A stretch of 64,000 nt of DNA, taken from NCBI GenBank assembly GCA_021802585.1, contig JAJZRQ010000003.1, positions 2,048 to 66,047 on the forward strand. The letters run 5' to 3'. The notes below the pieces were generated by a model that had not been told where the DNA came from, ran no database searches, and was given only the letters and a program-made list of their open reading frames with translations. Source of the stretch: Chloroflexota bacterium (GTDB lineage: Bacteria; Chloroflexota; Limnocylindria; Limnocylindrales; CSP1-4). Shown piece after piece: positions 3,404 through 54,278 of the stretch (its first letter is position 1; the number at the start of each line of letters is the position of its first letter). Both the position numbers and the translations under genes were made by a program.

Positions 3404-3408
3404 CCGGC

Positions 3409-4275: not shown

Positions 4276-4285
4276 GAGCGTCCCG

Positions 4286-8279: not shown

Positions 8280-8286
8280 AGGACAT

Positions 8287-25281: not shown

Positions 25282-25401
25282 CGCTCAAGTATTGCACGCC
25301 GCCGGCCGCCCCGCCGTGCCGGTGCGGCCGCGCCGCGCCGGTGTCCCGGCCCGGGCCCGCATGCGGTTGCGCGAACCGCGGATGTGGCGGACCCTTCGCA
25401 C

Positions 25402-26103
25402 GTGACCACGTCCCCGTCCCGCATCCTCGTCGTCGACGACGAGGCCCCGATTCTCGACCTCGTCCGCGGCTACCTCGAGCGCGAGGGGTTCACGGTGACG
25501 ACCGCGGCGGACGGCCCTTCCGCCCTCGAGGCCGTGCGGTCCGCGGCGCCCGACGTCGTGATCCTCGACGTCATGCTCCCCGGCATCGACGGGATCGAGG
25601 TCTGCCGGCGGCTGCGGACGTTCTCCGACGCGTACGTCCTCATGCTCACCGCCCGCGGCGAGGAGATCGACCGGATCGTCGGGCTGAGCGTCGGCGCCGA
25701 CGACTACCTCGTGAAGCCGTTCTCGCCGCGCGAGCTCGTGGCCCGGGTGAAGGCGCTCCTCCGCCGCCCGCGCGGGGCGGGCCCCGGCGCGGAGCCCGCC
25801 TCGCGGATCGCGGCCGGCCTCGAGATCGACGAGGCCCGCCGATCCGTCCGCGTCGACGGCCGGGCCGTGGAGCTGACGACGATCGAGTTCGACCTCCTGG
25901 CGACCCTCGCCCGCGACCCCGGCGTCGTCGTCCGGCGGCAGGCGCTCCTCGACCGCGTCTGGGGGATCGACTTCGTCGCCGACGACCATCTCGTCGACGT
26001 CCACGTCGCGAACCTCCGCCGCAAGCTCGGCGACGACCCGGCGCAGCCGCGCTTCGTCGAGACGGTCCGCGGCGTCGGCTACCGGCTCCGCGAGGAGGCG
26101 TGA
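25402..26103 (+). CDS. OmpR-family response regulator (TCS-1)
   Basis: Canonical receiver RILVVDDE...DVVILDVMLPGIDG...MLTARGEE...[10 protein letters not shown] and a winged-helix output TIEFDLL...VDVHVANLRRKL...ETVRGVGYRL. Confidence 0.9.
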   Translation: MTTSPSRILVVDDEAPILDLVRGYLEREGFTVTTAADGPSALEAVRSAAPDVVILDVMLPGIDGIEVCRRLRTFSDAYVLMLTARGEEIDRIVGLSVGADDYLVKPFSPRELVARVKALLRRPRGAGPGAEPASRIAAGLEIDEARRSVRVDGRAVELTTIEFDLLATLARDPGVVVRRQALLDRVWGIDFVADDHLVDVHVANLRRKLGDDPAQPRFVETVRGVGYRLREEA

Positions 26104-27194
26104 TGCCGTTCATCCGCTCGCTCCGCGCCCGGCTCCTCGTCGCCTTCCTCGTCGTCATCGGGGCGACCCTCGGGACCGTCGCCGTGGCGGCACTCCTCGT
26201 CGGCCCCGGCTACTTCGCCGAGGCGATGGGGCACCTCCCGGGGGACCAGATGGGGCAGGCGATGGCCGACGCGACCCAGGCGGCGTTCGACGACGCGATG
26301 CAGCGCGCCCTCGTCGCGGCGACGGTGATCGCCGTCGTCAGCGCGACCGTCGTGAGCCTCGCCGTCGCGGCCCGGATCGCGCGGCCGGCGGCGACGCTCG
26401 CGGCGGCGGCGCGGCGGGTGGCCGGCGGCCACTATGCCGAGCGCGTGCCGGTCGAGGCGCCCGAGGAGCTCGGCGCGCTCGCCGCGTCGTTCAACGAGAT
26501 GGCGGGCTCGCTCGAGGCGACGGAGCGACGCCGCCTCCAGCTCGTCGGCGACGTGGCCCACGAGCTGCGGACGCCGCTCACGACGCTCGACGGGTACCTG
26601 GAAGGTCTGGAGGACGGCGTCATCGCACCGACCGCCGAGACCTGGCGCCTCCTTCGCGCGGAGACCGGCCGGCTCACCAGGCTCGTGAACGACCTCTCCG
26701 AGCTCTGGCGGGCCGAGGCCCGCCAGTTCGCGCTGCGGATCGAGCCCCTCGACATCGCGGGGCTCGCGCGCGAGGTCGCCGACCGCTTCGCGCCGCTGGC
26801 CGCGCCGCGGTCCGTGCGCCTCGACCTGCGCGGCGGGCCGGCCGTCGCGGTCGCCGACCGCGACCGGGTCGCCCAGGTCCTCGCGAACTACCTCTCGAAC
26901 GCTCTCCGCCACGCCCCCGACGGCTCGGCGATCACGGTGTCCGCGACGACGCGCGACGGGCGGGTCGCGCTCGCCGTCGCCGACGAGGGCCCGGGCCTCT
27001 CCCGCGACCAGCTGGAGGCCGTCTTCGAGCGCTTCTACCGCGCCGACCCCGCCCGGAGCCGCGCCTCCGGCGGGTCCGGGATCGGCCTCGCGATCGTGCG
27101 CGCGCTCGCGGCGGCGATGGGCGGGCGCGCCTGGGCCGAGAGCCCGGGACCCGGCCGCGGCGCGACGTTCGTCCTGGAGCTGCCGGCGGCCTGA
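26103..27194 (+). CDS. Sensor histidine kinase with HAMP domain (TCS-1)
   Basis: Two TM helices flank a Met/His/Asp-containing periplasmic loop. H-box VGDVAHELRTPLTTL, N-box NYLSNALRHAP, G-boxes DEGPGL and GGSGIGLAIV. The ATG overlaps the RR stop. Confidence 0.9.
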   Translation: MPFIRSLRARLLVAFLVVIGATLGTVAVAALLVGPGYFAEAMGHLPGDQMGQAMADATQAAFDDAMQRALVAATVIAVVSATVVSLAVAARIARPAATLAAAARRVAGGHYAERVPVEAPEELGALAASFNEMAGSLEATERRRLQLVGDVAHELRTPLTTLDGYLEGLEDGVIAPTAETWRLLRAETGRLTRLVNDLSELWRAEARQFALRIEPLDIAGLAREVADRFAPLAAPRSVRLDLRGGPAVAVADRDRVAQVLANYLSNALRHAPDGSAITVSATTRDGRVALAVADEGPGLSRDQLEAVFERFYRADPARSRASGGSGIGLAIVRALAAAMGGRAWAESPGPGRGATFVLELPAA

Positions 27195-29355: not shown

Positions 29356-30789
29356 CTAGCGAATGACGAGCCCCGCAGCCGCGAACGCCGCCACGAACGG
29401 CTCGGCGGCCACGCCCGTCACGACGACGGCCGCCGCCGCCGCGAACGTCGCCGAGGCCGCCGGCCTGCCGAGCACGGCCACCGTCCCGGCGGGCCGGCCG
29501 AAGTACGCCGGTGCCAGCACGCGAACGTAGTAGAAGATCGAGACCACGGTGTTCACGGCGGCGGCGACCGCGAGCCACGCGTAGCCGACCTGGATCGCCA
29601 CGAGGAAGAGGAGCAGCTTCGCGACGAAGCCGTTGAGCGGGGGCACGCCGATGAACGAGAGGAAGCTGATGGCGAGAGCCGCGGTCAGCGCCGGTCGCCG
29701 CTCGCCGATCCCGGCAACGTCGGCGAGGGCCGTGCGACCCCGCAGCTCGACGACGACGCCGAAGGCAGCGAGGTTGCCGAGCACGTAGGCGAGGAGGAAG
29801 AACAGGAGGGCCGGCACCGCGAGGTCGCTGGAGCCGAGGGCCACGACCGCCATGAGGCCGTATCCCGTCTGTGACACGGCCGACCAGCCGAGGAGCCGCC
29901 GCAGGTCGTCCTGCCAGAGGCAGGCGAGGTTGCCGAGCGTCATCGTCGCCGCAGCCAGGACCGCGACGAGCGGCTGCCAGCCGGCTGCGTCCGGCGGCAG
30001 GGCGATGACGAAGCGAGCGAGGAAGATGAAGCCGCCCACCTTCGGAACGGTCGTCACGAAGGCCGCCACCGGCGCGGGGGCGCCCTGGGCGACATCCGGC
30101 ACCCAGGCGTGGGCGGGCACCGCGCCGATCTTGAACGCCAGGCCGACGACCACGAGCCCGACGCCGATGACGAGCGCGAGCCCGCCGTCGGAGGGCAGGC
30201 CGGCGGCGAGGCCGCCGAGCGTCGTCGAGCCGGCCAGCCCGAACAGGAGGGCGACGCCGAAGAGCATCGCCGAGTTCGCCAGGGCGCCGATGAGGTAGTA
30301 CTTGATCGCGGCCTCCGCCGCCTGCGACGAGCGCCGGTGATAGGCCGACAGCACGAACCCGGTGGCGGACGACAGGAGCATCGCGACGACGAGCTCCTTC
30401 AGGTCGGTCGCGCCCGCCAGGAGGATCGCCCCGAGCGAGGAGAAGAGGAGCAGGGTGTAGTACTCCCCGTGGCGTGGATCGCGCCGGAACCACGGCGCCG
30501 ACAGGCCGATCACCGCCACGGTCGCGGCGAGGACGATGATCTTCGCCCAGAGCGCCGTGCGGTCGCGGGCGTACGTGCCGAAGAAGGTCACGAGCTCGGT
30601 GCCCGGCAGCATCGCGAGCGCCACGGTGAGGGCCGCGACGGCCACGAGCATCGCCACGACGGCCGCCCCTCCCTGGAGGCGTCTCGGCGCGAGGAGGGCG
30701 TACAGGAGGACGAGGACGCCACCGGCAACGAGGACGATCTCGGGGAGGACGTCCGTCACCATCGTGGCCATCGTCGCCTGCCCGGTCAT
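29356..30789 (-). CDS. nuoN: Complex-I-like antiporter subunit, NuoN-like
   Basis: EYYTLLLFSSLG, AAIKYYLIGALANSAMLFG, FKIGAVPAHAWVPDV and about 14 TM helices. The ATG at 30789 is preferred over the upstream ATG at 30891, which precedes a non-membrane Arg/Ala-rich leader. Confidence 0.85.
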   Translation of the reverse strand: MTGQATMATMVTDVLPEIVLVAGGVLVLLYALLAPRRLQGGAAVVAMLVAVAALTVALAMLPGTELVTFFGTYARDRTALWAKIIVLAATVAVIGLSAPWFRRDPRHGEYYTLLLFSSLGAILLAGATDLKELVVAMLLSSATGFVLSAYHRRSSQAAEAAIKYYLIGALANSAMLFGVALLFGLAGSTTLGGLAAGLPSDGGLALVIGVGLVVVGLAFKIGAVPAHAWVPDVAQGAPAPVAAFVTTVPKVGGFIFLARFVIALPPDAAGWQPLVAVLAAATMTLGNLACLWQDDLRRLLGWSAVSQTGYGLMAVVALGSSDLAVPALLFFLLAYVLGNLAAFGVVVELRGRTALADVAGIGERRPALTAALAISFLSFIGVPPLNGFVAKLLLFLVAIQVGYAWLAVAAAVNTVVSIFYYVRVLAPAYFGRPAGTVAVLGRPAASATFAAAAAVVVTGVAAEPFVAAFAAAGLVIR

Positions 30790-30862
30790 GTGCCGACCCT
30801 CGCGGCGTCCGCCTGCCGCGCCGGCCGCCGGGGGCGACGAAGGCGCTCGTGCCTGCCCCTCG

Positions 30863-32362
30863 TCATGGTCGACCGACGAACGGGCCGGCAAAGGAATCGA
30901 CGACGCCGAGCAGCCACGCCGGGGCGACGCCGATGAGGACGACGAGGAAGACGAGCAGCCCGAGCCCGGCGGTCTCGACCCGCGTGAGGTCCGGGAAGGA
31001 CCGCCAGCGCTCCGGGAGGGACCCGAGGAAGAGCTTCTGGAGCATCCGCAGGAAGAGCGCGGCCGTGATGACGATGCCCAGCAGGCCCACGCCGGCGAGG
31101 ACGGGGTAGATCGCCAGCGTCCCGACGAACACCTGGATCTCGGCCACGAACCCGGCGAGCCCGGGAAGGCCGAGGCTGGCGAAGGCGAGGACGGCCGTCA
31201 GGCCCGTGAGCGAGCGGGCGCGGGTGAGGAGTCCGCCGTACTCATCCATCTCGTACGTGCCGCCGCGCGCGAGGATGGCACCGCTGACGAGGAACAGGCC
31301 GCCGGTGATGAGGCCGTGGGCGACCATCTCGACCGTCGCCCCCGTCAGGGCGATCGCCCGCGCCGCCTCCTGGCCGGTGACCGCCGCGCCGGCGACGGCA
31401 AGACCGAGGATGACATAGCCCATGTGGTTGACGCTCGTGTACGCGATGGCCCGCTTGAGGTTCGTCTGCGCGAGCGCCACGAGGGCCCCGTAGACGATCG
31501 CGACCACCGCGAGGATGGCGATCGGAAGCGAGAGCTGGGCCCATGTGTCGGGCATCATCGCCATGAGGATCCGCACGAACCCGTACGTCCCCATCTTGAG
31601 GAGGACGCCGGCGAGGATTGCCGACGCCGGCCCGGGCGCGTCGACGTGGGCCGGCGGCAGCCACGTGTGAACGGGGACGAGGGGCGTCTTGATCGCGAAG
31701 CCGATGAAGAAGCCGATGAAGACGAGGATCGCGTACGGGCTCCCGGCGGGCAGCGGCTGCTGGCGGATGATCTGCGCCATGTCGAAGGTCCGCGGCTCGG
31801 TGACGAGGTAGAGGCCGAGGATCGCCAGCAGGAGGGGCAGCGAGCCGGCGAACGTGTAGAGGAAGAACTTGAGCGCCGATCGCTGGGCGTCGCCGTGGCC
31901 CCAGGCCCCGATGAGGAAGTACATCGCGACGAGCGAGACGTCCCAGAAGACGAAGAACAGGAAGAGGTCGAGAGCGAGGAAGAGGCCGATCGAGATCCCC
32001 TCCAGGAACAGCATGAGGGCGAAGTACGGGACGGGCCGGCCGCGGAGGTCGACCGGGAAGGCGATCGCGACGACGAAGACGACCGCGGTCATGGCCGCGA
32101 GTGGAAGCGACAGGCCGTCGACCCCGACGCGATAGCCGATCCCCAGGGTCGGGATCCAGTCCACGGCCTCGACCTGCTCGAACGCTCCCGTGCCCCGGAA
32201 CCCGAGCCAGGAGGCCGCGACCAGGACGAGAGGCAGCGCGCTGATGACCGTCGCGAGCACCTGGACCCGGCGCTCCGCCCCGGGTCCGGCGGTGCGGCCG
32301 CGGGGCAGGATGGCGAACCCGACGGACGCGATGATCGGGACGAAGATGGCGGCGGTCAGCAC
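30863..32362 (-). CDS. nuoM: Complex-I-like antiporter subunit, NuoM-like
   Basis: GVDGLSLPLAAMTAVV, LFLFFVFWDVSLVAMYFLIGAWG, ALKFFLYTFAGSLPLL and KTPLVPVHTWLPPAHV are NuoM/Nqo13 signatures. Confidence 0.9.
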   Translation of the reverse strand: MLTAAIFVPIIASVGFAILPRGRTAGPGAERRVQVLATVISALPLVLVAASWLGFRGTGAFEQVEAVDWIPTLGIGYRVGVDGLSLPLAAMTAVVFVVAIAFPVDLRGRPVPYFALMLFLEGISIGLFLALDLFLFFVFWDVSLVAMYFLIGAWGHGDAQRSALKFFLYTFAGSLPLLLAILGLYLVTEPRTFDMAQIIRQQPLPAGSPYAILVFIGFFIGFAIKTPLVPVHTWLPPAHVDAPGPASAILAGVLLKMGTYGFVRILMAMMPDTWAQLSLPIAILAVVAIVYGALVALAQTNLKRAIAYTSVNHMGYVILGLAVAGAAVTGQEAARAIALTGATVEMVAHGLITGGLFLVSGAILARGGTYEMDEYGGLLTRARSLTGLTAVLAFASLGLPGLAGFVAEIQVFVGTLAIYPVLAGVGLLGIVITAALFLRMLQKLFLGSLPERWRSFPDLTRVETAGLGLLVFLVVLIGVAPAWLLGVVDSFAGPFVGRP

Positions 32363-32416
32363 GATCGGGCTCCCCGATGGTCGGCGTGAATGGCGGACGG
32401 CATCGCCGGCGTGCCT

Positions 32417-34342
32417 TCAGCGAGCTGTGGCCAGGATCGCCACGACGGCCGCCAGTCCGACGGCCATGACGACGAAGTACTCGTGGGACAGCCCCGTCTG
32501 GAGCCTGCGACTCTGGTGCCCGGCCAGGCCGACGCCCTGCCCGATTGCCTCCACGGTGGCGTCGACGCCCGCGTCGTCGGCGATCCGTGAGGCGGCGGCC
32601 GTGGACAGCCAGCCCCGGGCGACGAGCCCGACGGCGCCGTCGATCATCCGCTCCAGGCGTCGCGAGAAGAGGCGTGACACGGTCTCCCCGAGCGCGGCGG
32701 TGCGCCGAACCCCCGCGTCGACCACCCGCTCGTCGAGGAGGCGGAGCAGGCGCGACAGCCTGAGGGAGGGTCGCACGACGAGCGCACCGGTCGCGGCTGG
32801 GAGCCCAAGCCAGTCACCGGCCGCGTCCTGCGCGGCTGGCGCCAGCCCCAGCGTCAGCAGGTGGCTGCGTCGCCGCAGGAGGAACGCGAGCCAGAACGCG
32901 ACGGCGACGAGGAGGAGCGCCGCGGCCGTCTCTCCCGGCGGGCCTGCCGGGGGCAGCGGACCGGCGACCTCCTCAACGAGCGCGGCGGCGCCCGGGAGCC
33001 ACAGGAGGGACAGGCCGACGGTCACCGTCGCCAGCACCGCCATGCTGCCGGTCGCCACCCGGCCGGGAGCGTGGAGGCCCTGCGGCCCGTCCGCCCCGGG
33101 GCCCTCGGCGCGACCGTAGGCGAGGAGCTGGTAGCGGGCGGCGTAGAGGGCGCTGAGGAAGCCGGCGGCGAGGACGGCGGCGCCGAACCACGCGGATGCG
33201 TCGGCGGCGCCGGCGAGGATCTGCTCCTTGGACCAGGCGGCCCCGAGCGGTGGGACGGCGGCCAGGGCGAGCGCGCCGATCCACGACAGCAGCGCGATCC
33301 GCGGCAGCGCGCGTCCCAGCCTCAGGCCCCCGAGCCGGCCCGTCCCGCCGGCGTGGATGGCGACCCCGGCCCCGAGGAACAGGAGGGACTTGAAGGCGGC
33401 GTGGGCCACGAGCTGCGCCGCAGCAGCGGCCGGGAAGCCGGCTCCGACGGCGGCGAACATGAGGCCGTACTGGGCGGATGTCGAGGCCGCCAGCGCCCGC
33501 TTCGCGTGCGTCTGGACCGTCGCGACGATCCCGCCGGCGAGGGCGGTCACGAGGCCGACGACGGCGACGGCCGGCAGGAACCAGCCGACGGGTTCGAGGA
33601 CGGGCGAGAGCCGGATGAGGAGGAAGGCACCGGCAGCGACGAGGGTCGCGGAGTGGAGGAGCGCCGAGACGGGCGTCGGGCCCGCCATCGCCGCGAAGAG
33701 CCAGGGCGAAAATGGCACCTGGGCGGACTTGGCCGCGGCCGCCAGGAGGACACCGGCCGCGATGATGCCGCGAGCCGTGCCGTCCGTGCCTCCCACGGCC
33801 TCGAACGCGAACGACCCGCTGGCGGCGAACGTCGTCCCCGCGGCGAGGTAGAGCCCCAGGTCCCCGAGGCGCGTCGTGAGGAAGGCGGCGGCCGCGGCGC
33901 GGGGGTTGTCCGGGTCGCGCCAGCCGTGGCCGATGAGCGCCCAGGACAGGGCCCCCACGAGCTCCCACGCGACGAGGAGCGTGACGAAGTCGGACGCCGA
34001 GACCAGCAGGAGCATCGCCGCGACGAACGCGAGCATGAGGCCCAGGAGGCGCACGCGCCCCTCGTCCTCCGTGACCGCCGCGTAGGCCACGATCGGCGTC
34101 GCCACGAGCGGGACGAGGACGATCATGACCCTCCCGAAGCCCTCGACGGCGAGCCGCAGCTCGATGAGGCGGCTCCACTGCCAGGCGAACGTGGGCTCCG
34201 TCGTCGCGACCCAGGCGCCGACGCCGATCGTCACGACGAGCGCCAGCACGGCGACCCCGGCGACGGCGCGGGCGTGCGCGCGCAGCACGACGACGAGGAC
34301 GGCACCGAGCGCCGGGACGACGAGGGGCAGCAGGGCGTTCAT
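32417..34342 (-). CDS. nuoL: Complex-I-like antiporter subunit with C-terminal lateral helix, NuoL-like
   Basis: LLVAWELVGALSWALIGHGW, KSAQVPFSPWLFAAMAGPTPVSALLHSATLV, and a long C-terminal amphipathic segment plus a final TM helix, as in NuoL/Nqo12. Confidence 0.9.
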   Translation of the reverse strand: MNALLPLVVPALGAVLVVVLRAHARAVAGVAVLALVVTIGVGAWVATTEPTFAWQWSRLIELRLAVEGFGRVMIVLVPLVATPIVAYAAVTEDEGRVRLLGLMLAFVAAMLLLVSASDFVTLLVAWELVGALSWALIGHGWRDPDNPRAAAAAFLTTRLGDLGLYLAAGTTFAASGSFAFEAVGGTDGTARGIIAAGVLLAAAAKSAQVPFSPWLFAAMAGPTPVSALLHSATLVAAGAFLLIRLSPVLEPVGWFLPAVAVVGLVTALAGGIVATVQTHAKRALAASTSAQYGLMFAAVGAGFPAAAAAQLVAHAAFKSLLFLGAGVAIHAGGTGRLGGLRLGRALPRIALLSWIGALALAAVPPLGAAWSKEQILAGAADASAWFGAAVLAAGFLSALYAARYQLLAYGRAEGPGADGPQGLHAPGRVATGSMAVLATVTVGLSLLWLPGAAALVEEVAGPLPPAGPPGETAAALLLVAVAFWLAFLLRRRSHLLTLGLAPAAQDAAGDWLGLPAATGALVVRPSLRLSRLLRLLDERVVDAGVRRTAALGETVSRLFSRRLERMIDGAVGLVARGWLSTAAASRIADDAGVDATVEAIGQGVGLAGHQSRRLQTGLSHEYFVVMAVGLAAVVAILATAR

Positions 34343-34644
34343 CCCTTGAGCCGCCGCAGCTTCTCGGTGATGTCGGCGCGCCGTACCCGGTAGACACCGG
34401 TGATGAGGGCGAAGCCGAGCGCCATCTCGACCGCCATGACCGTCATGAAGACGACCCCGAGCATCTGGCCCTGCGGGCTCCCGCCCGCGGCCCGGGCCCA
34501 GAGGACCACGAGGGCGAGGATCGCCCCGTTGATGAGCAGCTCGATGCCCATCATGAGCATGACGAACGACTGCTGGCTCAGGGCGCCGTACACCCCGATG
34601 CCGAACAGGGCCGCGGCGACGACGAGGACCGCCTCCGTCGTCAT
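34339..34644 (-). CDS. nuoK: NuoK-like subunit
   Basis: 101 aa, 3 TM helices, with MMGIELLINGAIL and AVEMALGFALI carrying the two conserved Glu. 4-nt overlaps with both neighbours. Confidence 0.85.
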   Translation of the reverse strand: MTTEAVLVVAAALFGIGVYGALSQQSFVMLMMGIELLINGAILALVVLWARAAGGSPQGQMLGVVFMTVMAVEMALGFALITGVYRVRRADITEKLRRLKG

Positions 34645-35210
34645 CGGCCGGGCTCCTCGTCCGGCTGGAGGGACGGCTCGATCGAGTCCTCCTCGGCGAC
34701 GCCGAAGCGACCCTTCCGGCCCGCGATGACGACGGCGCCGATCATCGTCGACAGGAGCGCAACGCCGGCCGACTGGAAGACGAGCATGGAGTCTCCCAGG
34801 AGCTCTGTCCCCAGCTCGGCGGTGGCGGTCGAGGGATCCGGGACGGGTCGCGCCGGGAAGTTTCCGAGGAGCCCGACCGCGGCGAGGGCGACGAAGGCGA
34901 CGATGCCGGCCACCGCGGCGCGGCGGTTCTGGTGGACCATGACCATCGGGTTGAGGCCGGCTGGGTTCATCATGAACATCACCATCACGATGGCCATGAT
35001 CAGCATCTCGCCCGCCATCATGAGGATGAGCACCATCCCCAGGAACTCCGCCCCGAGGAGGACGACGATCCCGCCGACGCCGGCGAACGAGGCGAGGAGG
35101 TAGAAGGCGGCCCGGACCATGGAATCCGTGCGGAAGACGCGGTAGCCCGCGACGATGCTGCCGAGCGCGAACACCCAGAACGTGGCGTCGACGAGCGGCC
35201 CGGCGATCAC
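34641..35210 (-). CDS. nuoJ: NuoJ-like subunit
   Basis: 189 aa. FWVFALGSIVAGYRVFRTDSMVRAAFYLLASFAGVGGIVVLLGAEFLGMVLILMMAGEMLIM resembles the NuoJ N-terminal helices. The GTG start overlaps the nuoH-like stop (GTGA). Confidence 0.75.
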   Translation of the reverse strand: MIAGPLVDATFWVFALGSIVAGYRVFRTDSMVRAAFYLLASFAGVGGIVVLLGAEFLGMVLILMMAGEMLIMAIVMVMFMMNPAGLNPMVMVHQNRRAAVAGIVAFVALAAVGLLGNFPARPVPDPSTATAELGTELLGDSMLVFQSAGVALLSTMIGAVVIAGRKGRFGVAEEDSIEPSLQPDEEPGR

Positions 35211-36139
35211 AGGAGGATGGCCCCCGACACGAAGACGTTGAGGAGGGCGAGGGGGATGAGGACGGCCCAGGCGACGAGGACGAAGGTCGCGATCCGGACG
35301 CGCGCGAGCAGGTGGCCGGCGGCGAGGATCGCGAGGAGGACCGCCCCCGTCTTCGCGATCATCCATGCCGGGCCGGGCAGGATCGGGCCCCACCAGCCGC
35401 CGAGGAACCCGGCAGCTCCCATCGCGGCGACCGCGACCAGCATGGCCGAGCGGGCAATCGTCCAGAGGAGCCGGGCGACCCCGCTGTCCTCCACCGAGGT
35501 GCCGCCCGCCACGTCGCTCGCGTCGCTGAGGTTGAGCGGCCCCCAGAAGCTGACCCCCACCCCGACGACGAGGTAGAGCGGCAGGCCGAGCGGCTGTCGG
35601 AGCACGTTCCAGGCGGGTTCCTGGGCCCGCACGATGTCGACGATGGAGAGCGACTCGGCCGGCAGCGCGGTGGCCAGCATCGCCAGGAGGAACGGGATCT
35701 GGAAGGACAGGGCGGCCGCCCCGTACCGGTACGCGCCATGGAGTGCGAATGGCGAGTTCGGCGACCAGCCGTGGAGGAACACCGCGATCATGACGAAGGC
35801 GATCGCGGCGGAGAAGGCGACGAAGCCAGTCGACGGATCAGCGATGACGAGATCGGGGCCAAGCGGGACGAGCGCGAGGGCGAAGGCCGCGAGGCCGAAG
35901 AAGAGCGCCGGGGCGACCGCCCAGCCGGCGCCGTCGGGGCGCTCCGTCGTGCGACGCTGCTGGACGAGGAGCGCGGCGGCCGCTGCGAGCGGGACGACGA
36001 GGAGCCGCCGCCACGAGCCGACCGCACCGGCCACGAGCGCGGCGGCGAACCGGTCGAGGACTGCCACGAGGTACACGCCTGCCACGAGCGCGGCGGCGGT
36101 CGCGAGCAGGGCGACCTCCGCGCCGACGTACGGCCTCAC
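35207..36139 (-). CDS. nuoH: Divergent NuoH-like subunit
   Basis: HGWSPNSPFALHGAYRYGAAALSFQIPFLL and GGWWGPILPGP align with NuoH GWsSNskYallGalRaaAQ.iSYEv and fGGW.gP. The conserved acidic loop is altered (see findings). The GTG at 36139 overlaps the upstream stop. Confidence 0.75.
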   Translation of the reverse strand: MRPYVGAEVALLATAAALVAGVYLVAVLDRFAAALVAGAVGSWRRLLVVPLAAAAALLVQQRRTTERPDGAGWAVAPALFFGLAAFALALVPLGPDLVIADPSTGFVAFSAAIAFVMIAVFLHGWSPNSPFALHGAYRYGAAALSFQIPFLLAMLATALPAESLSIVDIVRAQEPAWNVLRQPLGLPLYLVVGVGVSFWGPLNLSDASDVAGGTSVEDSGVARLLWTIARSAMLVAVAAMGAAGFLGGWWGPILPGPAWMIAKTGAVLLAILAAGHLLARVRIATFVLVAWAVLIPLALLNVFVSGAILL

Positions 36140-37455
36140 GCCGCGGCCTCGGGGCGGGCCCGGCCTCGGGCGAGGGGCCCCTCCTCGAGATCGAGGTCGA
36201 GGCTCACGATCGTCGCGACGACGTCGCCCCACTCGTGCTCGCGGAGGAGGGACGGGAGCACCGTGAAGAGGCGCTCACTCGCCGAGCTCTCCGCCTCGAG
36301 GCGACCACGCGGCGTCTCGACGCGACCCGTGGCCGTCGCGGCACGGGCGCCCGCGCGCGCCGCGAGGTCCAGCGACTGGACGGCCTCGCCGAGGCGGAGC
36401 CGCAGCCGCGCGGCGGCATCGCCACCCGCGTCGACGAGCGGAGCGAAGCCGAGGTCGCGGTATGCCGGATCCTCCAGACGGAGGTCCTCCCGCAGGCCGG
36501 AAGCCCGGGCGACTGGTCCGGCGCCGAGCCCGGCGACGGCTTCCGGCGGCACAGCCCCGACGCCTCGAAGGGACCACCGCAGGACCTGGGTCGCCGAGAT
36601 GATCGTGGCCAGGCGGCGGACGAGCGCCCCGTCGCCCGCCCGGAGGTTGGCCGCGATCCGGAGCGCGCGGAGCGCCAGCGCCTCGAGCCCGGCCGCGAGG
36701 AGCGCCTCGGCCACCGAGCGCAGGTGGGCGCGGGCCCGGGCGAGCTCGAGGTCAGCGATCGCGACCCGCTCGCCGAGCGCGCGGAGGAACGGGTCGGCCT
36801 CTGGAGAAGGCGCGGCTGCGGTGGCGTTCGCCAGGAGGTTCGCGACCTCGACCTCGAGCACGAGGTCACCGGCCAGGCGGGCGTCGACGACGAGGCCCGC
36901 CGGGAACCGGGGGAAGAGCGGGCCGACCGCCACCGGAAGCACGTCGAGGCGGAGCCCATCCGGGTCCGGCCCGAGCTCGGCCATCGGTCGGCCATACGGG
37001 ACGCCTCCCGTCATCCCGCTCCCGCCCTGGCCGTACGGGCCGACCCCGCGCCACGGCGCGGGGTCGACGTCGGGCAAGATCGGCGGCTCGGAGCCACGGC
37101 GACCGACGAGGATGTCGCGGTAGGCGGCGACGCACGCAGCGACGGGGTCGCCGTCGACGGGGATCGCGTCGTCGAATCCTTCCGGTCGCCCGAGACCGGC
37201 CGCTCCGGCCGACCAGAGGACGGTCGCCCGCGGGTGGGCCATCGCGTCATGCACGCGGGCGACCGCCATCTCCATCTCCGCGGGCACCAACCCGCCGACG
37301 AGCAGGACGGAGGCCGGCCGCGGGGTGTCGACGAGGCGGATCTCCGGTCGGAGGCGGAGATCCCGGATCAGCGAGCGCGTCCCGGGGCCGGCCACGGCGA
37401 ACACGGGGACGGGCGCGCCCGTGGCGACGCGGGCGAGGAGAGCCGTCAGGCCCAT
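36136..37455 (-). CDS. Single ORF fusing a Cys-poor NuoB-like domain to a NuoD-like (49-kDa/NiFe large-subunit-like) domain
   Basis: The N-terminal VDTPRPASVLLVGGLVPAEM resembles the NuoB SPRQADvmiVaGtvt.km segment. The C-terminal part contains VETPRGRLEAE (compare NuoD/hydrogenase EAPRGElg) and ends GDVVATIVSLDLDLEE (compare NuoD aDvvAiiGSiDiVmGEvDR). There is only one Cys in the whole NuoB-like part. Confidence 0.7.
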   Translation of the reverse strand: MGLTALLARVATGAPVPVFAVAGPGTRSLIRDLRLRPEIRLVDTPRPASVLLVGGLVPAEMEMAVARVHDAMAHPRATVLWSAGAAGLGRPEGFDDAIPVDGDPVAACVAAYRDILVGRRGSEPPILPDVDPAPWRGVGPYGQGGSGMTGGVPYGRPMAELGPDPDGLRLDVLPVAVGPLFPRFPAGLVVDARLAGDLVLEVEVANLLANATAAAPSPEADPFLRALGERVAIADLELARARAHLRSVAEALLAAGLEALALRALRIAANLRAGDGALVRRLATIISATQVLRWSLRGVGAVPPEAVAGLGAGPVARASGLREDLRLEDPAYRDLGFAPLVDAGGDAAARLRLRLGEAVQSLDLAARAGARAATATGRVETPRGRLEAESSASERLFTVLPSLLREHEWGDVVATIVSLDLDLEEGPLARGRARPEAAA

Positions 37456-37808
37456 TCCAGGGCCCGCTCCCGCCACGCGTAGAGCACCCCGAGGAGGAGG
37501 ATCGTGATGAACATCCCCATCTCGACCATCGCGATGAGCCCTTCCCGGACGAAGACGACCGCCCACGGGTACATGAAGACCATCTCCATGTCGAAGGCGA
37601 GGAAGATGAGCGCCATCGAGTAGTAGCGGACGTGGTAGCGGTTCCAGGCATGCACGCGGGGGTCGGCGCCGCCCCCGAACGGCACGCGTTCGGGGGCGGT
37701 CTGCGCGGGGGACCGGGGCCGACCCCCGAGCCACCAGGACGCCAGCACGACCGCGAACCCGGCCACGAAGACGGCGAACGAGACGGCAAGCGGACCGAGA
37801 GCAACCAT
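37446..37808 (-). CDS. nuoA: Divergent NuoA-like subunit
   Basis: 120 aa, 3 TM helices. RYHVRYYSMALIFLAFDMEMVFMYPWAVVF matches NuoA F...fYlvAilFiiFDvEvvFlyPWa. The usual YECG segment reads FGGG here. Confidence 0.75.
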   Translation of the reverse strand: MVALGPLAVSFAVFVAGFAVVLASWWLGGRPRSPAQTAPERVPFGGGADPRVHAWNRYHVRYYSMALIFLAFDMEMVFMYPWAVVFVREGLIAMVEMGMFITILLLGVLYAWRERALEWA

Positions 37809-37846
37809 GGCGGCCGCCGACGACGAGGCGGCTCCGACCTCCGGCG

Positions 37847-38005
37847 TCAGACGTAGTCCTCGGGAGCCTCCGTGAAGCTGTCGGCGCAGTCCTGGCTGCA
37901 GAAGGAGTAGACGGTGCCGTCGTGCTCGACGGTCGCCACGGCATCCGACGGGCGGATGCGCATCTGGCAGACGGGGTCGACGACGAGCTGCTCGGTGTCG
38001 GACAT
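37847..38005 (-). CDS. YHS/TRASH-domain small metal-binding protein
   Basis: VVDPVCQMRIRPSDAVATVEHDGTVYSFCSQDCADSFTEAPEDY is a YHS-domain pattern (DPVCgM...y.FCs..C...F). The ATG at 38005 is preceded by GGAGGAG. It lies 38 bp upstream of, and co-directional with, the nuoA-like gene. Confidence 0.75.
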   Translation of the reverse strand: MSDTEQLVVDPVCQMRIRPSDAVATVEHDGTVYSFCSQDCADSFTEAPEDYV

Positions 38006-38145
38006 GTGGAACTCCTCCGTGGGGTGCTGGTCGGCGGTCCTACCGTCGGGCCGACGGATGAGAGACACATGAGCGCCGCGTGAGAACGAGCCCGGGGCGA
38101 GCCCGCCCTGTCACGCCTCCGACGGCCATGTCGTAGCATAGGTCC

Positions 38146-38529
38146 ATGACCAAGCCTGCCACCGTGATCGACCCCGTCTGCGGGATGACCGTCCGTGTCG
38201 CGACGGCCGAGGAGGCCGGACTCGTCGTCGAACATGGCGGACGCACGTACGCGTTCTGCCGGGCCGCCTGTCGGCAGGCGTTCGTCGAAGCGCCCGAGGC
38301 ATACGCCGCCGCCGCCAACGAATCGCCTCCCGGCGAGCGCGAGGGCCATGCCCATGCAGTCGGGGAGCCCGTCATCGACGAGGGCATCCGCCGCTGGTAC
38401 GAGAGCTGCTCCTGCTGCCTCGGCGACGCGTACCCCGGCATCAAGGCGCAGCTGGACGCCGAGCGGGCCGCCGCCGCGGCGGCTCCGGCGGGGCCTGGGA
38501 TCTGCGAAGTCGCCGAGTCGGCAGGCTGA
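38146..38529 (+). CDS. YHS/TRASH-domain protein with Cys/His-containing C-terminal extension
   Basis: VIDPVCGMTVRVATAEEAGLVVEHGGRTYAFCRAACRQAFVEAPEAY, followed by GEREGHAHAVGEP...YESCSCCLGD...GICE. Confidence 0.75.
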   Translation: MTKPATVIDPVCGMTVRVATAEEAGLVVEHGGRTYAFCRAACRQAFVEAPEAYAAAANESPPGEREGHAHAVGEPVIDEGIRRWYESCSCCLGDAYPGIKAQLDAERAAAAAAPAGPGICEVAESAG

Positions 38530-38711
38530 GCGCCCGGCGCCACGCGCCGGGCCCCCACGCCGCACAGCCCCCGGTCAGCCCGCCAGCCACCGCACGAGGA
38601 TGACGGCGCCGGCCCCGACCGCTGCGAGGATCCGGAGGCCACGCCCCACCGTCGCGCGCCACCCTCCCCCGCCGGAGCGATCCGGCGGTCGTTCGTCCGT
38701 CTCCGGCCGCG

Positions 38712-39464
38712 TCAGGACAGGGGCACCGACCCCCCGACCTGGCAGGCGACGGCGATCGTCGCGAGCGCTGCGATGGGTAGCCACTCGTACGGAAGCCGGG
38801 CGGGCGTCCGATCCTCGCCGTCGACGGCGATCTCCAGCAGGCCTCGCAGGCGGCGGTCTGCCCGGGCAGCGAAACCCACTCCCATCGACCGGAAGCCGCC
38901 ATCGGCCTTGACGAGCGCGGCCGCCAGGGTGGCAGGACGCACGCCTGCCTGGAGCGCCGCCCGGTCTGCGTCTCGCTCGAGATCGGCGGTCCGCTCGTCG
39001 ATCGCGGCCCGGATCGCCGCCCAGCGACCGGCGAGGGCCAGCCAGGCCTCCAGGCCGACGGAGCGGAGCGGCGCGCGCGTGCGCCGGTGGTGCTCCTCGT
39101 GGAGCACGACGGCCCGCAGTTCGTCAGCGGCGAGGGCCAGCAGCAGGGCCTCGCCCACGTAGACCCGCGGCCGCAGCGCGCCGAGGACGAACGCCTCGCT
39201 CGCTCCGCCGACGATGACCTGGCACTCGACGCCGGCGACCTGCGACGGCCGGCAGCGGGACCCGAGCCGCGCGGCGGCGCGCGACCCGCGGTAGGCCGAC
39301 CTGGCACCGAGGAGGAGCCATATCGCCACGAGAGCGCTGACGGCGACCTCGAGGGCGGCCATCGGATCGCCGCCGGGCAGCCGCGCGGCGATCACGCAGA
39401 GGAGGGTGACCGCCGTTGCCGCCGTCGCGACGGCGATCACCGCGCGGCGTCCGGACGGGCTCAT
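38712..39464 (-). CDS. M56 (BlaR1-type) membrane metalloprotease lacking an extracellular sensor domain
   Basis: TM helices plus ELRAVVLHEEHHRRTRAPL (HExxH in the BlaR1/M56 context). 250 aa. The ATG overlaps the blaI-like stop (ATGA). Confidence 0.7.
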   Translation of the reverse strand: MSPSGRRAVIAVATAATAVTLLCVIAARLPGGDPMAALEVAVSALVAIWLLLGARSAYRGSRAAARLGSRCRPSQVAGVECQVIVGGASEAFVLGALRPRVYVGEALLLALAADELRAVVLHEEHHRRTRAPLRSVGLEAWLALAGRWAAIRAAIDERTADLERDADRAALQAGVRPATLAAALVKADGGFRSMGVGFAARADRRLRGLLEIAVDGEDRTPARLPYEWLPIAALATIAVACQVGGSVPLS

Positions 39465-41221: not shown

Positions 41222-41902
41222 ATGAGCGATGCTGCACGGATCCTCGTCGTGGACGACGACCCGAAGATTCGCGCCGTCGTTCGACGCGGGCTGGCGTACG
41301 AGGGGTACCGCGTCGTCGAGGCCGCATCGGGCGAGGATGGCCTCGACAAGGCCCGGGAGCACCTCCCGGACCTCGTGATCCTCGACGTGATGATGCCGGG
41401 CCTGAGCGGGCTGGAGGTGACCCGCCGCCTCCGTTCGTCCGGCGACGCGGTGGCGATCCTCATGCTCACCGCGCGGGACGAGGTCCGGGACCGGGTCGAG
41501 GGCCTGGAGACGGGCGCCGACGACTACCTCGTGAAGCCCTTCAACTTCGAGGAGCTCCTGGCTCGGGTCCATGCGCTCCTCCGCCGACGGGCGGCTCCTG
41601 CCGGCGAGATCCTCCGCTTCGCGGACCTCGAGCTCGATGTCGATGCCCGGGAGGCAGGGCGCGGAGACCGCCGGATCGAGCTCACGACAACGGAGTACAA
41701 CCTCCTCCTCCTGTTCATGCGCCACCCGCGCAAGGTGCTGACCCGCGACGTGATCATGGAGCACGTCTGGGCCTACGACTTCGACGGCGAGTCCAATGTG
41801 CTCGAGGTCTATGTGCGGTACCTCCGCAACAAGCTCGAGGCGGGCCATGAGCCGCGCCTCCTGCACACCGTTCGCGGAGCGGGCTACGTGCTCCGCGAGT
41901 GA
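41222..41902 (+). CDS. OmpR-family response regulator (TCS-2)
   Basis: [12 protein letters not shown]...[14 protein letters not shown]...MLTARDE...[10 protein letters not shown]...TEYNLLLLF...[11 protein letters not shown]...TVRGAGYVL. Confidence 0.9.
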
Positions 41903-43308
41903 CCCGCTGGCGGGGCCGCGTCGCGATCCGGGCGCGGCTGGCGCTGCTCTACACGGGGCTGCTCGCGGCAGCGCTCGCCGCGTTCGGCAGCGGCATGTAC
42001 GTGGTCCTCGCGGGCGAGCTCGGGCAGTCGTTCGACGCCGCCCTTCGCGCGAACGCCGAGCACGCCGCCGGCGCGTTCAGCCAGGACGTCGAGGCGGCCG
42101 GCGGCCTGCGTCCCACGGTCCGGCTGGTTTCCCAGCTTGCCTCCACGGGCGGGCGCGTCGTCGTGCTCGACGCGGCCGGCGCACGGCTGGCCGACTCCGC
42201 ACCGTCGGGGAGCGCGGCGCTGCCCATCTCGTCTGCCGACCTTGCCGCGGCAGCTCGCCACGCGAAGGCCGTGTGGGACGTGCGGATCGCCTCCGAGATG
42301 GCACGCCTCACGATCGAGCCGATCTCCGGTCCCGACGGCCGGATCGCGGGCTATGTCGCCTGGGCGGCTTCGACCGCCTCGCTCGAGGCCGTGCTCAGCA
42401 CGGTGGGCGCCGCCCTCCTTCTCGGCGGCGCCTTCGTTGTCGGGATCGCCCTCGCGGCCGGCCTCGTCGTGGCCGGCCGGGCCCTGAAGCCTGTCGCCGA
42501 CGTGACCGAGACGGCGCGCGCGATCGCGCTCTCGGGGGACTTCGGCGCACGCGTCGAGGGTGGAGAGCCGGGTGACGAGATCGGGGAGCTCGCCCTCGCG
42601 TTCAACGAGATGCTCGCGGCGCTCGAAGACAACCACCAGGCGCTCCAGCGGTTCCTCGGCGACGCCTCGCATCAGCTCCGGACGCCGCTGACCGTGATCC
42701 GCGCGAATCTCGACCTCGCGAGGCGCCCCGACCTCGCCGACGAGGAACGGGCGGCGATCCTGGCAGATGCCCGGGACGAAGCCGAGCGGATGGCGCGGCT
42801 CATCGGTGACCTCCTGTCGCTGGCGCGCGCGGACTCTGGCGCCCGCCTCGAGTTCGAGCGCGTCGAGCTCGACGCCCTCCTCGTCGACGCGGTGCGGCGG
42901 CAGCGGCTCGCCGCACCTCACGTGCGCATGAGCGTCGCGCACGTCGAGCTGGCTCTCGTCGACGGGGATCGCGACCGGCTCCGGGAGCTCCTCGGGATCG
43001 TCCTCGACAACGCGGCTCGCTACACGCCCGACGGCGGGAGCGTCGCGGCGTCGCTCACCGTCGCCGACCGGCGGGCGGTCATCGTCGTCGAGGACAGCGG
43101 CATCGGGATCGACGAAGAGGATCGCGAGCAGCTCTTCGAGCGTCTCCATCGCGGCCGGCGTGCCCGCCAGCTGCGCCCGTCCGGCACGGGCCTCGGCCTC
43201 GCCATCGCGAGGTGGATCACGTCGGCCCACGGAGGGACGATCGACCTCGCCCCGCGTGCCGGCCAGGGCACGGTCGTGACGATCACACTCCCGGTGGCCG
43301 CGCCGTGA
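41899..43308 (+). CDS. Sensor histidine kinase with HAMP domain (TCS-2)
   Basis: Two TM helices around a periplasmic domain of about 130 aa. H-box [17 protein letters not shown]-box [10 protein letters not shown]-box GTGLGLAIA. The GTG overlaps the RR stop. Confidence 0.9.
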
Positions 43309-44003
43309 GCATTCCGCGCGTCGTGGTCGTGGACGACGAGGTACCGCTCGCGGAGCTCGTGCGCGCGTACCTCGAGGACGCCGGCATGGACGTCCTCGTC
43401 GAGCACGACGGCCAGCGCGGCCTGCGGGCGATCCGCGACCGGGATCCGGACGTCGTCGTGCTCGACGTCATGCTGCCCGGTCTCGACGGGTTCGAGGTCC
43501 TCCGGCAGGCGCGGGCATTCTCGGATGCCTACGTGATCATGCTGACCGCTCGCGCCGAGGAGGTCGATCGCGTCGTCGGCCTCTCCATGGGGGCCGACGA
43601 CTACCTCGTGAAGCCGTTCTCCCCGCGCGAGCTGGCCGCGCGCGTCCGGGCGCTCCTGCGCCGACGGCGGCCCGCCCTGCCCGAGCGCGAGGGGCCGTTG
43701 CGGTCGGGGAGGGTGACGGTCGACGCGCGGCGCCACTCGGTGACGGTCGACGACGCCCCGATCGCCCTGACGACGATCGAGTTCGACCTGCTGCGAGCGC
43801 TCATCCGGGATCCTGGTGCCGTGTTCACGCGCCAGCAGCTCCTCGACGCGGTCTGGGGGATCGACTACGTGGGAGATGAGCGCGTCGTCGACGTGCACGT
43901 CGCACACCTCCGTCGCAAGCTGGGCGACCAGCGCGGTGGTCCCCGCTCCATCGAGACGGTGCGCGGCGTCGGTTTCCGGTTCCACGAGGACGGTCATCCG
44001 TGA
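43305..44003 (+). CDS. OmpR-family response regulator (TCS-3, paralog of TCS-1 RR)
   Basis: RVVVVDDE...DVVVLDVMLPGLDG...[39 protein letters not shown] is nearly colinear with the 25402-26103 product. The GTG overlaps the upstream stop. Confidence 0.9.
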   Translation: MSIPRVVVVDDEVPLAELVRAYLEDAGMDVLVEHDGQRGLRAIRDRDPDVVVLDVMLPGLDGFEVLRQARAFSDAYVIMLTARAEEVDRVVGLSMGADDYLVKPFSPRELAARVRALLRRRRPALPEREGPLRSGRVTVDARRHSVTVDDAPIALTTIEFDLLRALIRDPGAVFTRQQLLDAVWGIDYVGDERVVDVHVAHLRRKLGDQRGGPRSIETVRGVGFRFHEDGHP

Positions 44004-53973: not shown

Positions 53974-54089
53974 GCCGACGTCCGGCCCGGCTCCGCGCGT
54001 CATTCGAGGCGCGACAGGCCGGTCCTGCGCTGATGACCGGGCGCGGCATGTCGGCCGCCTCCGAGAAGGACCCAGAAAGGAACGTGGAC

Positions 54090-54278
54090 ATGACCGAGAC
54101 CATCCCAGCGATCACCGACCCCGTCTGTGGGATGGCGGTCGATCCGTTCGACGCCGCGAAGGTGGAGGTCGACGGCCGGATCTACTTCTTCTGCGATCCC
54201 TCCTGCGCGGACATCTTCCGCGACGAGCCGGCGCGCTGGACCGAGGACGGCTCCGGCGCTTTCGTGCACGAGCACTGA
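54090..54278 (+). CDS. YHS/TRASH-domain small metal-binding protein
   Basis: ITDPVCGMAVDPFDAAKVEVDGRIYFFCDPSCADIFRDEP. The ATG is preceded by GAAAGGAAC. Confidence 0.75.
   Translation: MTETIPAITDPVCGMAVDPFDAAKVEVDGRIYFFCDPSCADIFRDEPARWTEDGSGAFVHEH

Follow-up and report, generated by a model that had tools for sequence, protein, structure and literature searches.

The subject of this report is a nine-gene operon in a 64-kb stretch of DNA (hereafter the window) from a Chloroflexota bacterium (assembly GCA_021802585.1, contig JAJZRQ010000003.1, positions 2,048 to 66,047). The operon encodes a small YHS-domain protein, NuoA-, NuoH-, NuoJ-, NuoK-, NuoL-, NuoM- and NuoN-like subunits of a complex I-type membrane arm and, between NuoA and NuoH, a fusion of a NuoB-like and a NuoD-like domain, here called BD. 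It is an undescribed variant of the complex I/Mrp superfamily, which keeps the antiporter-like subunits, has no visible route for electrons and carries a ladder of conserved methionines in its NuoJ-like subunit. On balance we favour, with a confidence slightly better than even, the reading that the operon specifies a Cu(I)/H+ antiporter that would be built from complex I, be driven by the proton-motive force and export cytoplasmic Cu(I), possibly also Ag(I). That such a machine would constitute a functionally new class of metal transporter, in which a redox-stripped complex I arm acts as a multi-proton Cu(I)/Ag(I) pump, loaded by the YHS protein and using the methionine ladder as its path, is a broader proposal to which we give a little less than an even chance.

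The window has ~75% G+C and its raw open reading frame (ORF) lists are full of spurious frames; one co-directional minus-strand block (29356-38005) is singled out by a codon-position G+C score (Table 1). An earlier note on this DNA had described this block as nine tightly coupled genes, with a 10-nt overlap at the NuoA/BD junction and 4-nt overlaps at each of the BD/NuoH, NuoH/NuoJ, NuoJ/NuoK and NuoK/NuoL junctions, and had concluded that NuoC, NuoE, NuoF, NuoG and NuoI are absent and that a complete antiporter arm remains with no visible electron route. All of this holds. Every ORF is present and matches its expected Pfam family, the overlaps are as claimed and the remaining genes are separated by gaps of 38 nt (YHS/NuoA), 54 nt (NuoL/NuoM) and 73 nt (NuoM/NuoN). 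None of the five missing subunits is encoded in or beside the operon, either in the window or in ~85 related loci, and the 4-nt overlaps leave no gene between BD and NuoH or between NuoH and NuoJ, as is also the case in ~80 loci. A search for ferredoxin-type cysteine motifs in the six-frame ORFs of the ~85 loci returned two ORFs only, neither linked to the operon, and no NuoC, NuoI, NuoE, NuoF or NuoG was found in the operon copies annotated by Pfam or RefSeq. All nine window proteins together contain five cysteines, three of which belong to the YHS protein. The combination of a complete antiporter arm and no visible electron route extends from the window to the whole family.

The only remnant of the peripheral arm is BD, which consists of a NuoB-like domain (residues ~1-125), a Gly-rich linker (135-157) and a shortened NuoD-like domain (~160-439). 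That it is a B::D fusion, as first proposed from the window alone, is borne out by a profile of 24 family sequences, which matches NuoD/NdhH collinearly (175-425) and, separately, PSST/NuoB (43-82, E ~4e-5). Against NdhH the profile segments 175-204, 232-254, 279-369 and 398-422 correspond, in order, to NdhH residues 13-42, 101-123, 186-279 and 363-387, and the best E-values are obtained with NdhH/NuoD (7e-10 to 1e-6), followed by MbhL (2e-6) and HycE (2e-5). An AlphaFold2 model of BD (pLDDT 84.5, pTM 0.85) shows an N-terminal beta-alpha-beta domain, after which come the beta-sheet and the helical bundle of NuoD, and a Foldseek search with this model retrieves NuoD (E 3e-9), NdhH, MbhL and HycE, in the same order as the profile. 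The linker, WRGVGPYGQGGxGMTGGxPYGRP, is invariant in the family and disordered in the model, and it probably contacts another subunit. At least 656 relatives of BD were found in a search of 5.8 billion proteins; nearly all are ~440 amino acids (aa) long, and the few that carry a name are all called 'hypothetical protein'.

The redox ligands of the two parent subunits are gone from BD. The NuoB part was said to have lost the cysteines that bind cluster N2, and this proves correct: the window protein has a single, non-conserved cysteine and the family has no conserved cysteine column, so that neither an N2 cluster nor a NiFe site can be formed. In the NuoD part, GPFFPRFPAG aligns with the beta1-beta2 loop motif GP(Q/H)HPSxHG, and the position of the quinone-site His38 (Thermus thermophilus Nqo4 numbering) is occupied by Pro. 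Compared with NdhH, the segment that would bear Tyr87 is ~30 residues shorter, without a conserved Tyr or His, and ~55 more residues are missing further on. The BD proteins of Alphaproteobacteria are smaller still, at only ~290-365 aa (L091 11875-12972; L092 9992-10900), and retain the B-like domain, the Gly-rich linker and the first beta-sheet, with most of the NuoD helical core gone; the needed and conserved part of the cap may be the B domain together with the linker.

The membrane arm, in contrast to its cap, keeps most of the residues associated with ion translocation. The best matches in the PDB are NdhB, NdhC, NdhE, NdhF and NdhH and the NuoH, NuoJ and NuoM chains of Escherichia coli or Paracoccus, with Mbh and Mrp chains far behind. 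According to these alignments, NuoL keeps, across the family, the Glu of transmembrane helix (TM) 5, the Asp of TM6, the Lys of TM7, the His of TM8 and the Lys of TM11/12. NuoM has an Asp in TM5 (FWD for FWE), Lys in TM7 and TM8 and Glu in TM12 (compared with the P. denitrificans and E. coli proteins), and NuoN keeps the Lys residues of TM7, TM8 and TM12 and has Leu in place of the TM5 Glu (compared with NdhB and P. denitrificans NuoN). The claim of a full translocating arm that includes the lateral helix of NuoL holds for the antiporter residues of NuoL and NuoM and for most of those of NuoN; the lateral helix is presumed from the length and sequence of an amphipathic C-terminal extension. 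In one related locus the NuoN-like gene is called as two ORFs of 279 and 195 aa (L087 14742-16165), which reflects either a frameshift or a genuine split. Both canonical membrane Glu residues of NuoK are kept (GIELL, AVEMA). In NuoA, TM2 reads FDMEMVFMYPW for the canonical FDVE(T/V)VFLYPW of NdhC/NuoA chains, so that the Asp and Glu are preserved and are now flanked by Met, and the TM1-2 loop (PFGGG..HAWxRxH) shows two new conserved His and is without YE(C/S)G. The acidic TM5-6 loop of NuoH and the Glu of its SYE motif are central to redox coupling in complex I. Alignment with E. coli NuoH (7nyh_H, E 7e-31) shows that the loop PEAE..EL..G..EYSG..FF..EY is replaced by LSDAS-DVAGGTSVEDSG...WTIARS, that the SYE Glu has become Gln and that most conserved carboxylates are lost.

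The strongest functional clue, which the earlier note overlooked, is the methionine ladder and the Met-flanked carboxylates in NuoJ, NuoK and NuoA, and it is these that narrow the candidate ion from 'some ion' to Cu(I). The family mean Met content is 6.6% in NuoA, 8.0% in NuoJ and 7.7% in NuoK (60-73 loci), 1.7-2.6% in NuoH, NuoL, NuoM and NuoN and 1.3% in BD; the predicted proteome of the window contains 1.7% Met, and the enrichment in NuoA, NuoJ and NuoK within the window has a Fisher p of 1.7e-7. The corresponding canonical chains contain 1.9-2.5% (NuoA), 1.3-4.2% (NuoJ) and 2.1-6.7% (NuoK). Conserved Met columns number 13 in NuoJ (among 93 conserved columns), six in NuoK and six in NuoA. 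In TM3 of NuoJ, the canonical (V/I)(V/I)Y(V/A)GA(V/I)xVLF(L/V)F(V/A)(V/I)M(M/L)L, as seen in four canonical chains, has become LMMAGEMLIMAIVMVMFMM, which contributes M65, M69, M72, M76 and M80, together with M64, M78 and M81, and a new E68 beside the ladder. Helical-wheel angles place M65, M69, M72, M76 and M80 inside an arc of 80 degrees, that is, on one face of the helix. M65 aligns with Tyr59 of complex I, which according to a structural study of Mrp replaces the essential Glu706 of MrpA at the proposed Na+/H+ coupling point (PMC7419157). Directly after the ladder follows a conserved loop, MNPAGLNPMxMVHQ, which would face the cytoplasm below the BD cap, judging from the positive-inside rule and from ND6 structures. 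In NuoK, conserved Met residues lie close to the Glu residues (VMxMMGxE, VMAVE), and the Met motifs are near-invariant from Chloroflexota to Halomonas, Acuticoccus and Roseivivax.

The family is widespread, having been detected in 179 species in a scan of one genome per species and in 266 clusters at 50% identity in an exhaustive profile search (E<1e-30). The host list and the locus comparison cover the best 80 of the 179 species' loci, to which plasmids and Pfam-annotated contigs were added. Among the 80 best-matching loci the hosts are Chloroflexota (Limnocylindria, Tepidiformales, Thermomicrobiales, Dehalococcoidia and Anaerolineae), Actinomycetota (Acidimicrobiia, Nitriliruptoraceae, Thermoleophilia and Gaiellales), Gemmatimonadota, single metagenome-assembled genomes (MAGs) of Cyanobacteriota and Myxococcales, and Halomonas korlensis (CGMCC 1.6981). 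The gene order YHS-A-BD-H-J-K-L-M-N, whose conservation in related genomes had been put forward for checking, is kept across the 80 loci and at least four phyla, with no extra conserved gene inside the operon. The median identity to the window proteins is 75% for NuoK, 72% for NuoM, 66% for NuoJ, 65% for NuoA, 64% for NuoN, 58% for NuoH, 55% for NuoL, 55% for YHS and 49% for BD: constraint is strongest on the small E-channel subunits and NuoM and weakest on the cap. At the sequence level the operon is evidently under strong purifying selection and is not a relic.

The YHS gene had been named as the leader of the operon, and it is indeed a conserved first gene and more than a mere neighbour: in 69 of the 71 loci whose sequence reaches far enough upstream it immediately precedes nuoA. 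The window protein has the pattern C13-x22-C36-x3-C40, which fits the YHS/TRASH signature Cys-x(19-22)-Cys-x3-Cys, and the family consensus is DPVC.M...YyFCS.dC...F...P.dY. YHS is absent from the proteobacterial plasmid and genome copies, where other small proteins occupy its place: a DUF326 gene in H. korlensis and a DUF2933 membrane-protein gene in Acuticoccus. DUF326 corresponds to the copper storage (Csp) proteins, a Cys-rich family of four-helix bundles. The H. korlensis DUF326 gene (L085 9081-9406) is split over two frames, owing to a frameshift or a draft error, and a transposase of an insertion sequence (IS) family and umuD/umuC lie just upstream (L085 5768-8627), which suggests a mobile island. 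The NuoJ proteins of two of the proteobacterial copies also carry a His/Asp/Gly tail, of ~50 residues in Acuticoccus (L091 13877-14587) and ~110 residues in Roseivivax (L092 11796-12698), exemplified by GGHHHHHHGHGHGG; the window NuoJ has no such tail.

The operon had further been placed between copZ/cupredoxin genes and YHS/BlaI/multicopper-oxidase genes, and its flanks are as claimed. They include a two-component pair, an ArsR-type regulator and two CDF genes. On one side the window encodes a SHOCT protein and a cupredoxin together with DsbD-like and HMA/CopZ proteins; on the other lie a divergent second YHS gene, an M48-like gene, a BlaI/CopY-type repressor and a multicopper oxidase. The window also contains more two-component pairs, a MacB-type exporter with a YHS tail, a third small YHS gene and a P1B-ATPase (56618-59101). 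Since naive clustering of flanking ORFs at 70-75% GC gives antisense artefacts, flank calls were made from homology to the annotated genes of the window, from contigs annotated by Pfam and from the RefSeq annotation of plasmids. Copper genes (multicopper oxidase, P1B-ATPase, HMA, CusA, CopY-type and DUF326) occur near the operon, as a raw count, in 23 of the 51 loci for which 5 kb or more of flanking sequence is available, and the Pfam-annotated contigs give the same picture. OmpR-type pairs homologous to those of the window lie near the operon in 13-14 other loci, and an FTR1-cupredoxin pair adjoins one locus.

The copper context is clearest on complete plasmids of cultured Proteobacteria. 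On the Halomonas sp. KO116 plasmid (NZ_CP011053), copC, copD, an azurin-type gene, copRS, a multicopper oxidase gene and copB lie upstream of the operon. The ergothioneine genes egtB and egtD follow right after NuoN on this plasmid (L089 20093-22365), which may indicate a link between thiols and copper buffering. On the Acuticoccus sp. I52.16.1 plasmid (NZ_CP094829) the operon is preceded by DsbD/DsbA, copZ, copA, cueR and an ion channel and followed by TolC, a copper oxidase, a cupredoxin and a copper-binding protein, and on the plasmid of Roseivivax marinus TCYB24 (NZ_CP090153) the end of the operon is abutted by cueR and copA. A remnant lies behind copZ-copA-cueR-ion channel on a Martelella plasmid (L093 9669-12236) and on two near-identical plasmids; NuoA and the N-terminal ~150 aa of BD are all that precede the ISL3 transposase that truncates it, and it is a dead copy in an otherwise intact island. 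The metal-homeostasis context that had been claimed for the operon is thus upheld by recurrent cop/cue islands in cultured Proteobacteria but is not universal in the metagenomic loci, of which ~45% have copper genes.

A putative copper-responsive promoter is seen at one locus. Immediately upstream of the Acuticoccus DUF2933-nuoA unit lies TTGACCTTACCATGCTGGAAGGTTGTAGCT, which has the layout of a MerR/CueR promoter (-35 element TTGACC, 19-bp spacer, internal dyad) and is similar to the promoters from which copZ and copA are divergently read on that plasmid, TTGACCTTCCCAnnnTGGGAAG. It is also like the E. coli copA promoter. A search of all loci for the CueR-type dyad ACCTT-N10-AAGGT found it upstream of the operon in Acuticoccus only, besides one chance copy inside copA. 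The window operon is probably regulated through nearby putative CopY/BlaI-type or two-component regulators. Between its YHS gene and the divergent YHS gene, at ~38043-38057, lies an inverted repeat, CCGTCGG-C-CCGACGG, which could be an operator or a hairpin.

Taken together, these features suggest the following model for the favoured Cu(I)/H+ antiporter. The YHS/TRASH protein would act as a cytoplasmic Cu(I) chaperone or subunit; in Proteobacteria its place is taken by the DUF326 or DUF2933 gene product, and the His-rich tail of NuoJ may aid metal capture. The metal would then be passed to a vestibule, the former quinone chamber, formed by the Cys-less BD cap, NuoH, the His-bearing loop of NuoA and the Met/His loop of NuoJ, and Cu(I) would move along the NuoJ TM3 Met ladder, beside the Met-flanked carboxylates of NuoA and NuoK. 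This path corresponds to the former E-channel, which would have been rebuilt as a thioether-lined route for a soft cation. Protons would move inward through NuoL, NuoM and NuoN, as in Mrp or in a complex I running backwards, and their movement would be coupled along the conserved Lys/Glu axis to the NuoA/NuoJ/NuoK module.

Several points weigh against this model. Its substrate and direction are read from sequence features and genomic context, as are the coupling, the stoichiometry and the role of YHS, which might be no more than a structural subunit of the zinc-ribbon-like type. How the NuoJ loop and tail are oriented is likewise predicted, from the positive-inside rule and known structures. 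A machine with three antiporter-like subunits seems energetically lavish for metal export, and the loss of the NuoH carboxylates and of the NuoN TM5 Glu could mean that coupling is altered or weakened. NuoK of Mycobacterium smegmatis already contains 6.7% Met, so Met-richness as such is not peculiar to the family. Some 55% of the metagenomic loci have no recognisable copper gene within 10 kb, and one Chloroflexi MAG locus has housekeeping neighbours only. No CueR-type dyad was found in three loci (L001-L003) that are near-identical to the window locus, the window itself lying outside that scan, and the CopY cop box TACAnnTGTA, sought in the window because a BlaI/CopY-family repressor gene is nearby, gave zero matches.

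The best surviving alternative, which we nevertheless consider unlikely, is a generic Mrp-like Na+/H+ or K+/H+ antiporter that is merely co-located or co-regulated with metal-stress genes and in which YHS is structural. It would account for the missing redox cofactors and the retained antiporter residues; there are several halophilic or marine hosts, Acuticoccus and Martelella have a K+/ion-channel gene upstream, and complex I of mammals in its deactive form reportedly works as a Na+/H+ antiporter (PMC3464577). Thioethers, however, do not bind hard cations, and what the family has changed at the position of the essential Glu of Mrp is Met, not added carboxylates. The YHS, DUF326 and DUF2933 leaders, the His-rich tails, the CueR-type promoter and the cop/cue neighbours also speak for a soft metal and not for Na+ or K+. 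A role in copper handling other than export, namely Cu(I) uptake, sensing or delivery to cupro-enzymes such as multicopper oxidases driven by the proton-motive force, has a slightly smaller chance still. The Met ladder and the copper context would fit it equally, and copper-requiring multicopper oxidases and cupredoxins often adjoin the operon, as does the FTR1-cupredoxin pair in one case; against this, CueR-type control and the efflux genes copA, cusA and TolC alongside point to detoxification, and YHS and the His-rich tail, both predicted to lie in the cytoplasm, would suit the capture of metal there.

It is improbable that the complex is still a redox pump, fed with electrons by partners encoded elsewhere, for instance a borrowed NuoC/I/E/F/G, by a novel donor or through a copper centre made up of YHS and Met/His residues. 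All characterised complexes with NuoH and a NuoB/NuoD pair are redox enzymes, but this family as a whole lacks N2 ligands, quinone-site His/Tyr and an acidic NuoH loop, its NuoD scaffold is reduced, further so in Alphaproteobacteria, and an Fe-S gene is linked to the operon in none of the ~85 loci. A decaying duplicate of a nuo operon without a function of its own, to which the many lost catalytic residues, the IS-truncated Martelella copy and the apparently frameshifted H. korlensis leader gene might point, is very improbable given nine intact frames with translational coupling, a gene order kept over at least four phyla, J, K and M subunits 66-75% identical to those of the window and invariant motifs of the family's own.

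Table 1. Coordinates of the operon genes and of the adjoining intergenic region in the window
Feature	Coordinates	Strand	Description
YHS	37847-38005	-	52 aa; Pfam PF04945 E 8e-12; ATG 38005 behind GGAGGAG ribosome-binding site
NuoA/ND3-like	37446-37808	-	120 aa; Pfam Oxidored_q4 8e-29
BD (NuoB::NuoD-like)	36136-37455	-	439 aa; Pfam Complex1_49kDa 1.6e-11, residues 280-374 only
NuoH/ND1-like	35207-36139	-	310 aa; Pfam NADHdh 6e-39
NuoJ/ND6-like	34641-35210	-	189 aa; Pfam Oxidored_q3 7e-22
NuoK/ND4L-like	34339-34644	-	101 aa; Pfam Oxidored_q2 7e-15
NuoL/ND5-like	32417-34342	-	641 aa; Pfam Proton_antipo_M 4e-46
NuoM/ND4-like	30863-32362	-	499 aa; Pfam Proton_antipo_M 4e-65
NuoN/ND2-like	29356-30789	-	477 aa; Pfam Proton_antipo_M 1e-51
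Intergenic region, operon to divergent 127-aa YHS gene	38006-38145	.	presumed bidirectional promoter; sequence read

The remainder of the window holds further genes that bear on its metal and regulatory content. Including the one in an ABC ATPase, there are four YHS domains in the 64 kb: besides the operon leader, stand-alone YHS genes are found at 38146-38529 (+; 127 aa, divergent) and 54033-54278 (+; 81 aa), and a MacB-type ABC exporter at 45328-48418 (+) comprises two MacB_PCD/FtsX permeases and an ATPase (47549-48418) with a YHS domain at its end (Pfam 3e-7). This ABC_tran+YHS fusion recurs beside the operon in another contig (L088), and the YHS-tailed exporter looks like a metal-sensing or metal-loaded one. 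Three OmpR-type response-regulator/histidine-kinase pairs are encoded (25384-27194; 41249-45106 (+)), two of them in tandem. Lipoprotein-maturation genes (Lit and an Lgt-like gene with a long N-terminal extension), a cytochrome b gene and, where the window ends, a 285-aa unannotated ORF and then a cupredoxin-like ORF are found at 54561-56323 (+), 59804-60799 (+) and 62808-64000 (-); the cytochrome b gene and the two ORFs are situated beyond the P1B-ATPase gene. Locus structure varies between close relatives: one locus whose BD is ~100% identical to that of the window (L001, GCA_027399805.1) contains, between the M48-like and the divergent YHS genes, an insertion of ~7 kb (1811-8881) that is missing from the window (~38530-38712) and that carries ccmABCDEF, a thioredoxin-like gene, ccmH and a ZIP transporter gene.

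If the favoured model is true, the family would provide a naturally occurring redox-free complex I, and a metal ion, driven or driving, could be used to probe how its E-channel and antiporters are coupled; a complex that keeps NuoA, NuoH and NuoJ to NuoN without electron transfer would isolate the coupling problem and offer a simple ion as read-out. Beside the P1B-ATPase, RND and CopB/CopCD systems there would also be a Cu(I) exporter that is chemiosmotic and independent of ATP. The carriers are abundant soil and freshwater lineages, including Limnocylindria and other Chloroflexota, Acidimicrobiia and Gemmatimonadota, and the operon is also found on plasmids of marine Proteobacteria, on which it is able to spread. 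In current databases its subunits are labelled 'NADH-quinone oxidoreductase subunit A/H/J/K/M/N' and BD 'hypothetical protein'; metabolic reconstructions of carrier MAGs may therefore miscount it as a respiratory complex I that is not there.

How the operon relates to described systems can be assessed at several levels. The earlier note did not recognise the B::D fusion, the Cys-less B domain and the metal-homeostasis context as described, and no match was found in the literature that we searched, which lacks a description of this family and which leaves aside subscription-only papers such as the original Ehr paper. A hidden Markov model survey of complex I variants contains neither the order YHS-A-BD-H-J-K-L-M-N nor a Cys-less B::D fusion or a Met-rich E-channel (PMC12361115). 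The likeness to the Ehr complexes (relatives of energy-converting hydrogenases), whose function is unknown, is that both have a NuoD/large-subunit relative without the metal-binding CxxC beside antiporter-like subunits (PMC6349859, PMC10284858). Compared by description only, Ehr large subunits are found near group 4f hydrogenases and are expected to have an electron-donor partner, whereas every subunit here is Nuo/NDH-1-like, and there are neither small-subunit Fe-S ligands nor a ferredoxin-like subunit. The resemblance to Ehr that had been suggested thus stands in the loosest sense, in that NiFe ligands are lacking, but not in subunit type, which by best matches is closer to Nuo/NDH-1 than to group 4 hydrogenases. 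A second possible relative is the nuo2-type cluster of Streptomyces (nuoA2 B2 D2 H2 I2 J2-N2), for which the literature yielded gene names only and which is without C, E, F and G, keeps B2 and D2 as separate genes, includes nuoI2 and is not known to have a YHS gene; we treat it as a lead and not as a comparison.

In CusA and Ctr1, conserved methionines alone serve as a stepwise path for Cu(I)/Ag(I), and CusA is proton-driven. The operon shares with these transporters the genomic company of copA, cueR, multicopper oxidases and CusF-like proteins, but there is no homology, and fold and coupling machinery are entirely different. Complex I/NDH-1 is the homologous system: NuoA, NuoH and NuoJ to NuoN are related and in the same order, most residues of the Lys/Glu path and the NuoK and NuoA carboxylates are kept, and the NuoB and NuoD folds survive as remnants. 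Unlike complex I, the operon has no NuoC, NuoE, NuoF, NuoG or NuoI, joins shortened, Cys-less B and D domains in one protein, has neither quinone-site His/Tyr nor an acidic NuoH loop, carries the Met ladder in place of Tyr59 and includes a YHS gene; judged by its sequence, it is without the features that define complex I, namely N2, the quinone site and NuoC/NuoI. The redox-free Mrp (Mnh/Pha) antiporters have antiporter-like subunits together with NuoK-like and NuoJ-like folds, and their cation has been proposed to pass the NuoJ-like helix at a point (MrpA E706) that is Y59 in complex I and M65 here (PMC7419157). In contrast to Mrp, there is no MrpB, MrpE, MrpF or MrpG, there are NuoH, NuoA and a B::D cap, and there are three antiporter-like subunits with a NuoL-type extension. 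The path of Mrp is lined by carboxylates and His (E706, D792 and E796 of MrpA), the one proposed here by thioethers, with E68 one turn from M65. The subunit set is not that of Mrp, yet the two probably work alike, and Mrp is probably the closest working analogue of this redox-free arm.

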